Shown here: positions 50,896 through 63,905 of the stretch, piece after piece
Numbering within the stretch: the first letter of the stretch is position 1
How the letters are laid out: each line of letters begins with the position of its first letter
Source: Octopus vulgaris
Taxonomy: Eukaryota
DNA length: 64,000 nucleotides
Direction of reading: 5' to 3'
NCBI GenBank assembly: GCA_951406725.2
Contig: OX597816.1
Coordinates: 155,124,001 to 155,188,000 of the forward strand
Notes under the pieces: generated by a model
What the model was told of the DNA's origin: nothing
Seen by the model: the letters and a program-made list of their open reading frames with translations, nothing else
Database searches by the model: none
Translations under genes and position numbers: made by a program

Positions 50896-51425
50896 TAAGA
50901 AACTGATAAAATCCAACCTTACACTTGATAGCCAAATGCTTGTTAGTATATTATTATATTAATAATGTAAATATATTTAATGAAGTGTAGGAAAAATAAT
51001 TTTAATTATCAATCAATTAAAATTATAGCCACCTCTGAGAAGAAAAGCCTTATCATTGACGATCGAATATATAGTGTAACATCGAGAAACGAGAATGGCA
51101 TTGCCAACTGTATTTCAAGCCTTCATTACCATAGAATGAGTCAATATAATATGTATAGTGCTGTACAAGACGCATTTAAATATTTCACTTGCAACATAGA
51201 AAAGGATTTACTCTTTTTTAAAGCGCTTTAAGGTTGATTCAAGGACATATTTCTGGGTTCAAATCAAAGCAATGTTAACTTAATGTTGCAGCAGCCAAGG
51301 ACTTCGATCAGTGGAATTCATGTAAAATAGCTGTTTCAAATACCCTACGTTATTTCCTGTCCTTCAACTGTACTCGTAAGGTAGTTTCAGTTGAAATACA
51401 AACCCAGGTTATTATATCATTCTTT

Positions 51426-51645
51426 AGGGTGGCGAGCTGGCAGAATCGTTAGCACGCTGGACGAAATGCTTAGCAATATTTCGTTTGCCGTTACGTTCTG
51501 AGTTCAAATTCCGGCGAGGTCGACTTTGCCTTTCATCCTTTCGGGGTCAGTAAATTAAGTACTAGTGAAACACTGGAATCAATGTCATGACTAGTCCCCT
51601 CCGCACCAAATTTCAGGCCTTGTGCCTTCACTAGAAAGGATTATA
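51426..51645 (+). mobile_element. tRNA-derived SINE with Meta-type central domain
   Basis: gggtggcgagctggcagaatcgttagcac...gagttcaaattcc...gtcgactttgcctttcatcctttcggggtc...taagtac. The domain name is assigned from memory. Other fragments at ~2350-2415, 28570-28630 and 49400-49530(-). Confidence 0.88.
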
Positions 51646-52702: not shown

Positions 52703-54163
52703 TGGAGAGAAGTGTATTCCCACGGTGGAAAAATATAGGTGAATGTGTTTTGGGAGTTTGAAAATGCACTTGAATCTCAAAACGTGCATTGGTGTTCAAA
52801 TTTATAGATTTATTCAAATGCTATTTGAATAAATAAAGGATAAATAATAGATTTATTCAAATTCCAAGCAGGTGTCGATTTTGTTTTGCTTATCAGTCGT
52901 ATACATATATAAATAAAGAGTTAAGAAGAGTTTAAATTTACAAGGTAAAATTTGGAAATCATGTTTAAAATATCCGATGTTCAAATGTTCATAGAAACTT
53001 CAATGAGTTTCACAGGGAGACGCTGTAATATAAGTATATTTAATGAAGATCAGAACAAATATACATGACTAATGACTCATATTGAGGTTTTTTTTTATAA
53101 AAAAAAAAAGGGGTAGAGAAGAAAGAGAAAAAGATAGACTGAAAGAATTTTGTTTTTACAATTTCTTTCGTGATGTACGAAGGAGTTCTATCAATTCCTG
53201 TTCGCTAAAGTCCAATTTTTTCAGTATATATATATTTACGGTAATGGATCAGTTTTGATTAGTTATAATTTTGATGGCGTCTTTTGTATTTCTCGTGGAT
53301 GGTTTGATCAAAATATTTTTGTTTTGGCAAAATCCAGCATTCTGATTGGTTATCTTTCTGGTGGGGATTTAGTAACTTGTTTTCGTCTGACGGTCATCTA
53401 ACGTTCCAGTTGGTTGGTTCCCTTAAGAAGTCACCAGTTCGGTCGCCTCGATGTTTACTTGTCTTTTTCCTGAGCGTCTGATTTTGACGAGAGAAAAATG
53501 TTCATTAGTTTAGTTTGAGGTGATGTCAGCAATTGGTGTTTGTGAAGGTGCGTAGTGTTATTGTGTTATTGTACAGTAGTTTAGTGTTAGAGATTCAAAT
53601 CCCTGAAGGAAGTCTGTTACTTAAAATTTTCGATTTATATCTGTTGTCTCTGGTGAATGAATATTTTCGTGAATAAATTGGGTTTTCATTTTCTTGTGTG
53701 TCATTATTGAATATTGAATTGTTCGTATTTTTTAAACACCTAATTCCTTATTTCATCGAAATTGGGTCGATGAGTTTCCGGTGCATTGATAAAGAGGGAA
53801 ATCTGGTATTCGGATTTATATTTGCAGAGCATTGGTCTAAGTGTTTACTTTCGGGAATTTTCTTGGACGCGGAGTCCTGGATCTGTTGCCAGTGTACCGT
53901 TAAGTTGTTCCTCAAGGTCAAGCTTGTTTGACTTATGTAATCCCCACCACACCCATTACATTTGAGAACATAAATTAAGTTATTCGATGAACACGTGAAA
54001 TGAAGTGGGTGTAGTGAGGACTACATAGGTCAAACGAGCTTGACCTTGAGGGATAGCATAACGGTACACTGGCAACAGATCCGAGACCCCACGACCCCAA
54101 AACTTCCCGAAAGTAAACACACAGGTCAATGCTCCGCAAACATAAATACAACTACCAGATTTT
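52703..54163 (-). mobile_element. Penelope-like element remnant: GIY-YIG endonuclease with head-to-head inverted copy
   Basis: Minus 53981-53700 gives NLIYVLKCNGCGGDYISQTSLTLRNNLTVHWQQIQD...IPESKHLDQC. Plus 53998-54163 gives GCSEDYIGQTSLTLRDSITVHWQQIRDP...ESKH. The 3' region resembles 60185-60870. Confidence 0.85.
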
Positions 54164-54790: not shown

Positions 54791-54821
<31 letters not shown>

Positions 54822-54822
<1 letters not shown>

Positions 54823-56132
54823 CAACTTATAAGCGAGGGCTAAAGGAGATTATTCCAAAGCCAATATACTGATTTTCCACATATAATCCACTTGCTATAG
54901 AAATTGAACTGAAGTCGGGCAAACTAACCGTTAGAATATTTAAATTTCGTTATCTCTATATTGAATCAATTTCGGAAGTAATCTCATAAAGGATTCATTC
55001 TTCATCGGTAGAGCTTACGAGAGAATATAATTAAGATACTTACATGCGCCTATGGAAAAAGCCGAAGCAAAGAACATAAGTACGTTTAAGTTCCTCAGTT
55101 ATATCTAAAAATAAAAATTCTTTGGTCAGTCTCAGAACAACGTGTTGACTGTTGGCCGTTACAGATTGTAATGGTTACCAGTCCCTATAGCAAGCAGTAA
55201 TAAGCCTACTACTAATAATATAGGATGAAGTTTTTTCTCTACAGAAAAGAATTCCATCAAGAAATGTGGCAGTATATTAAAAAATACCTTTACGGTTAAA
55301 ATTATAAACAACTTATAAGCGAGGGCTAAAGGAGATTATTCCAAAGCCAATATACTGATTTTCCACATATAATCCACTTGCTATAGAAATTGAACTGAAG
55401 TCGGGCAAACTAACCGTTAGAATATTTAAATTTCGTTATCTCTATATTGAATCAATTTCGGAAGTAATCTCATAAAGGATTCATTCTTCATCGGTAGAGC
55501 TTACGAGAGAATATAATTAAGATACTTACATGCGCCTATGGAAAAAGCCGAAGCAAAGAACATAAGTACGTTTAAGTTCCTCAGTTATATCTAAAAATAA
55601 AAATTCTTTGGTCAGTCTCAGAACAACGTGTTGACTGTTGGCCGTTACAGATTGTAATGGTTACCAGTCCCTATAGCAAGCAGTAATAAGCCTACTACTA
55701 ATAATATAGGATGAAGTTTTTCTCTACAGAAAAGAATTCCATCAAGAAATGTGGCAGTATATTAAAAAATACCTTTACGGTTAAAATTATAAACAACTTA
55801 TAAGCGAGGGCTAAAGGAGATTATTCCAAAGCCAATATACTGATTTTCCACATATAATCCACTTGCTATAGAAATTGAACTGAAGTCGGGCAAACTAACC
55901 GTTAGAATATTTAAATTTCGTTATCTCTATATTGAATCAATTTCGGAATTAATCTCATAAAGGATTCATTCTTCATCGGTAGAGCTTACGAGAGAATATA
56001 ATTAAGATACTTACATGCGCCTATGGAAAAAGCCGAAGCAAAGAACATAAGTACATTTAAGTACCTCAGTTATATCTAAAAATAAAAATTCTTTAAATAT
56101 TCTAACGGTTAGTTTGCCCGACTTCAGTTCAA
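54822..56132 (-). repeat. Tandem array of 486/485-bp units (2.6 copies) with a hammerhead-like motif per unit and a terminal 41-bp inversion
   Basis: Units start at 54822, 55308 and 55793 and are almost identical. Motifs at 54954-55013, 55440-55499 and 55925-55984. 56092-56132 is the reverse complement of an internal segment. Confidence 0.93.
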
Positions 56133-57879: not shown

Positions 57880-58300
57880 GCCTTCCAGTCCGTGTTCGGC
57901 GTCTCCGACGTTGGCCACGATGCTGCGCAAATAGGTGAACTCCTCGATTTAGTGTTGTCTAGTCATCAAGAGGACGCCATTGTTGTTTTCATCGACATAC
58001 CCAATCCTCATGATCTTCACCTTGTTTGCATTTATGGAGAGTCCGATCTTGGCCGTCTCCCGTTCCTCACTCTCTGTCATTGTGCGAGTGACATTCTTCG
58101 TCGCTCCGAGGAGTGCGATGTCATCGCTGAAGTCGAGGCCAGTCAGGCGCTCCAACCCACATCACGGAATCCTAAATCCGCGTTCGTGCATCGCGTTGTG
58201 CATGACGAAGTAGATTGCCATAAGAAATAGGAGAGAAGATAGAATGCACTCTTGCCGTACACCGATTTCAATAGCAAAGTAGTCGATGTAGCCCGTCTCC
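57880..58300 (-). pseudogene. RTE-clade LINE RT core fragment
   Basis: GVRQECILSPLLFLMAI...LTGLDFSDDIALL...AKIGLSINANKVKIM...EEFTYL.SIV. Confidence 0.88.
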
Positions 58301-58415
58301 GTTCGAACGCAAAGTAAACAGTAAAAAAAAACATTGAAATATTCGCGTGCAAATTAAATATTTAAAAGCTTCGAGCAAACCGACAGGAATTGCTAGAAAT
58401 AACAGTTTAGACATT

Positions 58416-58639
58416 AAGGCGGCGACCTGGCAAAAACGTTAGCACGCCGGGCGAAATGCTTAACAGTATTTCGTCTGCCGCTACGTTCTGAGTTCAAATT
58501 CCGCCAAGATTGACTTTGCCTTTCATCCTTTCGGGGTCGATAAATTAAGTATCAGTTACGCACTGGGGTCGATGTAATCCCTTTGTCTGTTCTTGCTTGT
58601 CCCCTCTATGTTTTGCCCCTTGTGGGCAATAAAGAAATA
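58416..58639 (+). mobile_element. Full-length Meta-type SINE with 21-bp TSD
   Basis: Same family as 51426. TSD AGAAATAACAGTTTA(G/A)ACATT at 58395-58415 and 58640-58660. Confidence 0.92.
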
Positions 58640-60866: not shown

Positions 60867-60949
60867 TAATATATATATATATCATATATACATACATACA
60901 TACATACATACACATATACATATATATATATATACATACATACATACCC

Positions 60950-63594
60950 ACACATGCACACCCTTACACTGAATGCACACACACATACACCTTTTTGCAT
61001 CCAGGCAGCCCCCCCTCTTTTCTGCTTTCCGGTTTTGGCTGATGGATCCTCGGTTCCCGCGTAGCGGGTCGTTCGAGGGCCTTTGCGCTCGCGCGCCTTG
61101 GCGCGCGCTGGGGGCTTGGTCGGCCCCTTGGGCTTGCGTTGTATTGCTTGTGTGTTGTGTGCGTGAGCGCGCTTCGTGTGTGTGGGCTTGCTTCGGGTGT
61201 GTGCGTGCGTATGTATACATACATACCCACACACTCGCATGCATCCCTACCCACATACATACACGCACACCTACTCACACACACACATACACACACACAC
61301 ACACATACCCGCACACACACACACATACATACATACACACACATACCTACTTCAGACATACACACACACAGACATACACCCATACACTCACACTCACACG
61401 CATACACACACACACATACACACGCACACGTACACATACACACACACACACCTACATACATACATACATTACACTTGTACACACACACACTTACATTCAT
61501 ATACATACACACACCTACACAGCCATACCCTCACTCAGACACACACACCTACCTACACACACACACAAACACACACAGACACACACCCATACATACATAC
61601 ATCTACACACACACGCCTACAAACATACATACACACATACATAAACACACACATACACATACACACACATACGCACACACACATATACTTATACACATGC
61701 ACACACACACACATACATACATACACCCATACACATACACACACACATACCTACATACTCCTATACGCACATACATACACACAGACATACACACATACAC
61801 ACTCACACAAACATACACACACACATACTTACACACACACTCCCTGCACGCGCACACACATGCATGACAAACACCCATACACTCACACTCACATACGCAC
61901 ACACCAACATAAACACGCACACGCACACACACACCTACACTCCCACACACATACATACGCACCTACATACACACACGCACGCATACACACGCACACACAC
62001 CCATACACACATACATTACACACGTACACACACACCTACATACACATGCATACACACACACACAAACATGCACGGACACACCCAGACATACATACATACA
62101 CCTATACACACACACACACCTACATACACACACATACATACACACACATACACGGACACACCCATACATACTTACATATATACACCTATACACACACGCC
62201 TACACACCTACATACACACACATGCATACACACACACACATGTACGCACATACACACACATATACGCACATACATATATACCCACACACATGCACACACA
62301 CACACATACGCCCATGCATGCATGCATGCACACGCGCACACCTACACGCATACATGCATATATGCATACACACACACACACGCACGTACATACATACATA
62401 CACACACACATACATACACCCATACACATACATGCATCCTACACACACATACATACACACTCACACATACATACACACACACACACTCACTCACACACCT
62501 GTATGTACGCGCACACACATGCACATACACACACTTCCACACACCCACACGTACATACATACACACTCATACACATACACACACACACACACACGGACAT
62601 ACATCTATGCACACACATATATACACACATACTTACATACATTCATCGGACACACTGACACCCAGACATACACACAGACACACTCACACATCCACACACA
62701 TACATACTTACACACACACTCGCAGGCGCGCGCACACACGCGCTTGCGCCGGTTCGCGCACGCATACGCGCATGCATGCACCTCGCTCTTGGACCCGACG
62801 AGACCACCCGCTCGTTTCTGGGGCCGTCGCCTGTCGTTGGGTTCTCCCACGCCCGTCTCTGCGGGACCACTCTTCCATCTTCCCCTCAGCTGGAGTCCTT
62901 TTTCCTTATAACCCCCCCTTTTTGTTACACACACGCGCACATATACATACACCCACTCACACACACACATTGCTTAAATATATACATTACTCTTACACAC
63001 ACTTCAAATCTACTCGCCATACATACAACTACGACACTGGACACACACACACTACTACTCAACACACACGCTGGCACGTTACATACGCCCCCACCCCTTC
63101 CCCTCCCTCCCTTCCTCCTTCCTTCATTTTCTTACTACTGACCACTGTCTGCTATGCCTACTACTGTTCGCCCTACCTCACACGCCTACACACAGACGCA
63201 CACACTAACATATACATATATTTTTTGTTTTTTTATCTCGCCTCACACACACATACACACACGCACACGCACACACTCACACATACACACACATCTGTTG
63301 CGTTACCAACCCTGTCTCCACTCTTTTGGCTTTAAAAACCTACTTTGCTCTTGTTATCGTAAACTTCCGCCTTTCACCATGTGTACTTCGTAAACACCAG
63401 TCGTTTTTTTTTTTCTCCCTCTTGTTGCCCACTTTGGGATCTTTCTTTCCTCTCTCTTCCTTCTTTATGTTTCCGACGAAGAGCTCCGCTCGAAACGTCA
63501 TACCTTCCTGCTTCCATCTTTCCTGAGCGCCTATTAATAATAATACTGTAATTGTTCCACGTGTTGATGTTTTTTCTGTTTTCCCGTTTGGATT

Positions 63595-63600
<6 letters not shown>
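60950..63600 (+). mobile_element. Penelope-like 3' region/pLTR: long cryptic (CA)-rich tract, two A-depleted tracts, terminal hammerhead-like motif, ending at (TA)n
   Basis: 63473-63503 reads CCGACGA-A-GAGC(TCC)GCTC-GAA-ACGT-C. The terminal 120 bp is homologous to 40760-40893(-). The 5' boundary is approximate. Confidence 0.7.
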
Positions 63601-63693
<93 letters not shown>

Positions 63694-63905
63694 AAGGGCT
63701 TCTTTCAGTTTCCGTCAACCAAATCCACTCAAAGGTTTTGGTCGACCAGAGGCTATAGTGGAAGACACTTGCCACATGGGACTGAAGTCGGAACCATGTG
63801 GTTGGTAAGCAAGCTATTTACCACACGGCCACTATTATATATATGTGTGTGTATATAACACCTACATACGCACACACACACATATACATACATAAATACA
63901 TACAT

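Follow-up and report, generated by a model that had tools for sequence, protein, structure and literature searches.

The A-poor tract at 61021-61200 of the window, by which we mean the whole 64,000-nucleotide stretch of Octopus vulgaris DNA that was analysed (GCA_951406725.2, contig OX597816.1), belongs to one arm (arm 1) of an inverted repeat that a Penelope-like retroelement carries in its 3' UTR. From the comparison of its genomic copies, it is very probable that the hairpin RNA of this element was hyper-edited by ADAR and that the reverse transcriptase (RT) of the element fixed inosine as G in a master lineage. A-to-I edits are ordinarily lost along with the RNA; here they were apparently turned into germline DNA and then amplified by a successful retroelement lineage.

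The tract is composed of 6 A, 45 C, 70 G and 59 T, being the 180-nt stretch with the fewest As in the window (the runner-up has 17). It includes an A-free run of 66 nt (61077-61142), and the two longer A-free runs of the window are both within simple-repeat arrays. The six remaining As (61042, 61046, 61063, 61076, 61143 and 61166) are preceded by G in four cases, and our recount gave exactly the numbers of the earlier note for the As, the A-free run and the As after G. According to the subfamily ladder described below, the clearly old ones are 61042 and 61046 only, both after G. Genomic support for the tract was found in assembled contigs from four public runs, which belong to 4 studies and carry 3 organism labels. 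These contigs cover all of its 30 bins; the G>A differences listed in these contigs are at 61197, 61205 and 61207 only, and no A-rich form of the tract was seen in them. Since contigs of runs from four studies span all bins, we consider the tract real DNA and not an assembly artefact.

The copy in the window (60940-63600, plus strand) is 5'-truncated and retains the 3' UTR and the pLTR only, with a 5' boundary that is approximate, within CATA/TA repeats. It has genome-wide matches of 96-100% identity, and longer copies contain upstream a single ORF with the RT followed by a C-terminal GIY-YIG domain, which places the tract in the 3' UTR of a young Penelope-like family. More than 100 of the 150 scored RT matches are 96-100% identical. 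An intact ORF of 950 aa (L141) gives sub-cut-off Pfam matches to RVT_1 (433-614, E=0.0012) and GIY-YIG (855-891, E=0.013), and it has 801 homologues at E<=1e-30, with PF00078 in many and PF01541 in some. This ORF (L141:570-3422) is strongly C-biased on the sense strand: third positions are 57% C and 11% G, and T>C is its most frequent lineage change. The 3' end of the element recurs upstream of the ORF in L066, L069, L071 and L074, forming a pLTR, and 10 of 12 intact copies have the hammerhead-like motif on either side. At one locus (L148, G000:C10:97807937-97820760), three long-ORF copies on one strand, spaced by ~6.2 kb, are apparently a head-to-tail tandem array. A sister pLTR family (from L110) was discarded, its copies being too short.

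In the pLTR of the window copy, a minimal hammerhead-like motif (63473-63499, plus strand) has a 4-bp stem, GAAAC and a core beginning with CCGA, not CUGA. Its fold z is -0.36, and there is no Rfam hammerhead among the matches listed. The core reads CCGACGA in the window family and CTGACGA or CTGATGA in related families and some sister copies, a change that may affect cleavage. The copy is followed by a (TA)n tract (63600-63691), the customary 3' neighbour of the family. The RT and GIY-YIG ORF together with the pLTR bear out the Penelope-like identity first proposed from the window, and the plus strand, taken as sense from the motif beginning at 63473, is indeed the one that encodes the family ORF. 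The translation, read by eye, has two Cys inside the GIY-YIG core and two His downstream, which is CCHH as defined in PMC8557442, and a C-X4-C-X2-C linker upstream of GIY-YIG agrees with CX2-5CxxC. The ORF architecture and the Cys linker fit Neptune/Nematis-type elements as characterised there. As far as PMC8557442 and PMC4209133 describe them, the latter reporting minimal hammerheads in Penelope-like elements, the likeness, which is one of architecture, extends to a single ORF with RT ahead of GIY-YIG, the Cys linker, tandem pLTRs and (TA)n neighbours, and the motif at 63473 resembles their minimal hammerhead; unlike them, the present family has a 3-kb CA-rich 3' UTR with an internal inverted repeat.

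The origin of the tract was found in copies followed from the ORF end. Three of them (L253, L255 and L256) are without the tract and contain one segment, here called X, at the site of the second G-rich island; identity to X is 87-100% in each of the 40 matches scored. The tract corresponds to X in reverse complement, and a plain BLAST of an old arm 1 against an X copy aligns on the opposite strand with 70% identity (E=1.3e-10). In the derived lineage, X occurs twice in inverted orientation. Alignment and BLAST identify arm 1 (60990-61135, plus strand) as X duplicated in inverted orientation and altered by A>G, its core (60999-61132) being traced to X, while arm 2 (62758-62921, plus strand) aligns as the descendant of X in the original orientation, also with A>G changes. 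They are separated by a loop (61223-62757, plus strand), a C/A-rich low-complexity spacer with many As and few Gs. Within the 134-nt core in the window, the 46 Gs come from A (21), from G (19) and from other states (6), and the 42 aligned As of anti-X are now G (21), C (9), T (7) and A (5). The earlier note had derived the tract from the adjacent ACACAC words with G read as A, which was mistaken: the actual source is the reverse complement of X, whose other copy is ~1.7 kb downstream in the window. Its example stretch falls in the GT-rich 3' end of the tract (61136-61222, plus strand), outside the traced core, which by eye looks like an inverted CA/CATA flank with a later duplication and T>C changes, and which ends in a 14-bp palindrome (61209-61222).

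Two candidates for the source were rejected. Scoring G as A, nothing in the element or the window exceeded the control scorings, and an origin from the pLTR/leader junction, which looked convincing when G was scored as A (0/200 shuffles), fell to 0/19 once the scoring was neutral. In L253, L255 and L256, X has a 5' half that is GT-rich and complementary to CA repeats, and may be an older inversion. No X was found in the stretches examined of L154-L156 and L257.

We counted substitutions at columns fixed at 70% in 14 X, 15 old arm-1 and 6 old arm-2 copies. These sets result from the exclusion of unanchored sequences (3 of 17 X copies and 6 of 12 fetched arm-2 stretches) and, for arm 1, of L226; L178, L172, L165 and L250 were kept apart, belonging to later or side lineages. 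On the sense strand, arm 1 differs from X by A>G at 19/35 As, with 5 A>T, 1 A>C and T>C at 0/26; arm 2 differs by A>G at 12/27, with 2 A>C and T>C at 3/43. In the pooled arms, A>G reaches 31/62 against 3/69 for T>C (p=1e-9), with C>T at 0/47 and G>A at 2/53, so that the clustered sense-strand A>G change fixed in DNA, as claimed in the earlier note, is confirmed. Clusters of sense-strand G>A, the APOBEC signature, are not what these counts show.

The direction of change was taken from a three-way comparison of extant copies. The sequence that departs from the other two by A>G is arm 1 at 19 columns, arm 2 at 10 and X at none. X is thus the older state and no root is needed, since either arm retains the X base where the other changed. 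In direction-neutral pairwise alignments, with all mismatches scored alike, A>G amounts to 18-30 per copy in arm 1 (11 copies) and 13-17 in arm 2 (7 copies), and to 0-1 between X copies (7 copies). Outside the arms, A>G was found at 0/19 As in the flank, 0/29 in the ORF end and 1/69 in a UTR block (1/117 in all), and the strand-specific excess is limited to the arms.

The neighbours of the changed sites follow the direction expected for ADAR as a trend. A 5' G precedes 1/31 edited and 5/23 unedited sites (p=0.07), 1/37 and 6/42 in L288 alone (p=0.11), and the pooled set gives p=0.22, the three counts being non-independent. There is no enrichment of 5' U at edited sites (7/31 vs 5/23). The eight A>T and A>C changes of the arms are not explained by ADAR.

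Inversion followed by ordinary drift or GC-biased conversion would make arm 1 A-poor simply as an inverted T-poor segment, with both arms drifting to GC. The inversion is real, 19 of the 46 core Gs go back to G, and T>C drift affects the whole element (13/32 at ORF third positions, which are 57% C). However, a strand-symmetric process predicts that A>G and T>C are equally frequent within either arm, against the 31/62 and 3/69 observed, and unpaired regions of the same lineages show one A>G in 117 As. For the first step this explanation is very unlikely and largely refuted; the T>C changes that came later are correctly explained by it.

Just as improbable, in our judgement, is another A-specific process acting on the sense strand of the hairpin, such as RT misincorporation on a structured template or adenine deamination of a DNA hairpin during second-strand synthesis. 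It would likewise be limited to the arms, and the non-significant neighbour preference and the accompanying A>T and A>C changes agree with it. Yet change at ~50% of As with almost no other transition is the pattern that ADAR is reported to leave when it hyper-edits an inverted repeat of a retrovirus (PMC12925331), and deamination of the cDNA strand would give sense T>C, which is absent at the A>G step.

We give marginally less credit still to selection on random mutations for G-U wobbles that weaken the perfect duplex, evading for example dsRNA sensing or RNAi. The predicted duplex energy weakened from -256 kcal/mol to about -150, old copies having 28-36 G-U pairs, and the lineage with intact ORFs today is the edited one. 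But C>T would generate the same G-U pair, and it is absent. Selection may explain the survival of the edited master.

The G-type tract is common to the family. A purine-degenerate motif gave 79 matches, all with G at the eight degenerate positions, and 11 of the 12 fetched copies with intact ORFs have the tract. Among 21 copies chosen by their 3' end, 5 extend to the tract and all 5 are G-type. In an alignment of 100 copies (without L205, L078, L086, L099 and L234), a copy has A at no more than 10 of the 67 window-G columns, with a median of 2. Degenerate probes for an A-form of the tract returned 1, 0 and 1 matches, none of them A-rich, and a probe from the oldest tract form returned 13, of which 12 are all-G and one has two As; this probe missed anti-X, since anti-X departs from it at four fixed positions. 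With degenerate and oldest-form probes and BLAST, no copy with an unedited arm 1, or with both arms unedited, was found. Within the young subfamilies, the G-rich sequence is thus in the literal sense shared by the copies, an outcome that the earlier note held to speak against its reading. That the window holds a single, freshly edited form of the neighbouring CA repeats is practically dismissed: the local words are plausible when G is read as A, but all 79 siblings are G-type, the tract shows 96-100% identity to its best 40 BLAST matches, and under G=A scoring no source in the element or window beat the controls. The mechanism of that note, an ADAR-edited transcript that was reverse-transcribed and fixed in the germline, largely stands, without its source sequence and its framing as one copy.

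Searches from diverged copies separated five subfamilies (O1, O2, M, Y and I), with tract identities within groups of 0.86, 0.89, 0.92, 0.97 and 0.997, and the ORF tree is a ladder that matches this order. The order is suggested by end-branch lengths and within-group identity, and it conflicts with the root given by an outgroup of 80% identity, which falls at the young end of the ORF tree on a very long branch; this root may be an effect of the length of that branch. The three-way polarity is independent of the outgroup root, while the order of later steps depends on it. Copies with X only are poorly placed in this tree, having 15-42% of columns filled. From O1 to Y, the tract changes by T>C at 18/47 and by A>G at 3/8. 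The GCGC and CpG richness of the window tract is therefore partly late, since the changes from O1 to the window group are mostly T>C, a bias shared by the ORF. The earlier note ascribed the CpG-rich islets to editing; much of the CpG and GCGC content is later T>C drift.

We suggest the following course for ADAR editing of the hairpin. The starting state would be that of the sister lineage, with a single X and no arm 1. X would then have been duplicated upstream in inverted orientation (the homology is observed in the copies and the order of events is our reading), and the transcript would have gained a perfect duplex of ~130 bp. About half of the As of each arm became G, in more than one round, a pattern seen in the alignments, with ADAR as the likely enzyme acting on hairpins in the germline and the RT copying I as G. 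In the genome, the A_deamin domain (PF02137) has matches above cut-off at four places, a count that pools ADAR, ADAD and ADAT types. The edits were inherited via the master lineage, because the edited form is present in all later subfamilies examined, including the one with intact ORFs. Element-wide T>C drift later made the arms GC- and CpG-rich, with pairing still predicted.

More than one round of A>G is apparent as a pattern across copies. L288 has 37 A>G changes, of which arm 1 holds 20 and arm 2 holds 17; compared with the main lineage, 10 sites of its arm 2 are shared, 5 are private and 4 are missing. In L250, which forms a side lineage with its relative L285, the outer flanks have also become able to pair (-87.8 kcal/mol vs -11.8 in a control). 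A>G in the left flank reaches 11/46 in L250 and 9/36 in L285 against 0/56 in a control copy, these counts being approximate in a low-complexity alignment. To the right of arm 2 in L250, a GT-rich stretch (L250:2040-2110) absent from other old copies renders the outer flanks complementary; by its looks it arose from another inverted duplication or from editing of a TA-rich sequence.

The arms are predicted to pair still. The arm-arm duplex has z of about -10 in old copies and, in the window, -114 kcal/mol with z -6.5, where 61027-61082 would pair with 62839-62895. In the predicted fold of the whole UTR, 42 arm-arm pairs are formed and 61136-61222 pairs with 61219-61420. Compensatory T>C opposite edited sites was not detected (15/24 vs 10/26, p=0.16). 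A local structured-RNA domain at the tract was rejected, with fold z of 0.11, -1.30 and -0.39 and Rfam matches that are repeat-driven and below gathering scores.

ADAR-type A>G hypermutation is known in avian retroviruses (Hajjar & Linial 1995; Felder et al. 1994, as cited in PMC12925331 and PMC8586724), with A>G at nearly 50% of As in a retroviral inverted repeat (PMC12925331). As summarised in these sources, the cases are alike in that an inverted repeat or U3 has nearly half of its As changed to G, and the changes pass into DNA by reverse transcription. However, the avian cases concern exogenous retroviruses, and here the element is endogenous, Penelope-like and fixed in the germline, with more than 100 later copies over several subfamilies. 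In vertebrate LTR retrotransposons, G>A fossils of APOBEC are described (PMC4866542; PMC2873906), being absent from 19 invertebrates in the account of Knisbacher & Levanon (PMC4866542). As presented there, they resemble our case in being deaminase signatures preserved in genomic copies of retroelements and told by strand bias, whereas APOBEC produces G>A on cDNA in vertebrates and the present change is A>G, confined to duplex arms, in an edited lineage with intact ORFs. Coleoid cephalopods hyper-edit repeat RNA heavily (PMC9068888, PMC5625713). As those papers describe it, this is also ADAR acting on repeat dsRNA, often in 3' UTRs, with G depleted upstream of edited sites; in contrast, it consists of RNA-versus-DNA differences, and here the genomic DNA itself is changed. 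In a literature search largely outside subscription journals, we met no description of a master lineage, Penelope-like or otherwise non-LTR and endogenous, in which ADAR edits had become fixed.

On this reading the tract is an invertebrate, RNA-based counterpart to the APOBEC fossils of vertebrate ERVs, and it implies ADAR activity on retroelement RNA within germline cells. Age estimates from repeat divergence can be inflated by fixed edits. The comparison of a one-arm sister lineage with a two-arm lineage is a simple genome-only test, usable wherever a family has an internal inverted repeat. More tentatively, and with chances we put slightly short of even, ADAR could be a recurrent heritable mutagen of Penelope-like elements in this genome: the gain of an RNA duplex would be followed by germline ADAR edits, fixation by the RT and a weaker duplex, with the lineage transposing on. 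If so, a datable germline fossil record of A-to-I editing would exist across retroelement families with internal inverted repeats.

Other repeats are present in the window. At 54817-56087 there are three copies of a unit of at least 300 nt, 99-100% identical and spaced by 485-486 bp. An inverted repeat at 53799-53963 and 53998-54162 is MITE-like, with 165-nt arms that are 82% complementary and a 34-nt gap. By eye, 58000-58300 on the minus strand contains the remnant of a LINE-type reverse transcriptase frame. A dispersed pair of short repeats (51424-51588 and 58414-58578) shows 84% identity, and another dispersed short repeat, next to the (TA)n tract (63692-63829), recurs in many fetched loci at 73-87%; all three are probably SINE-like.
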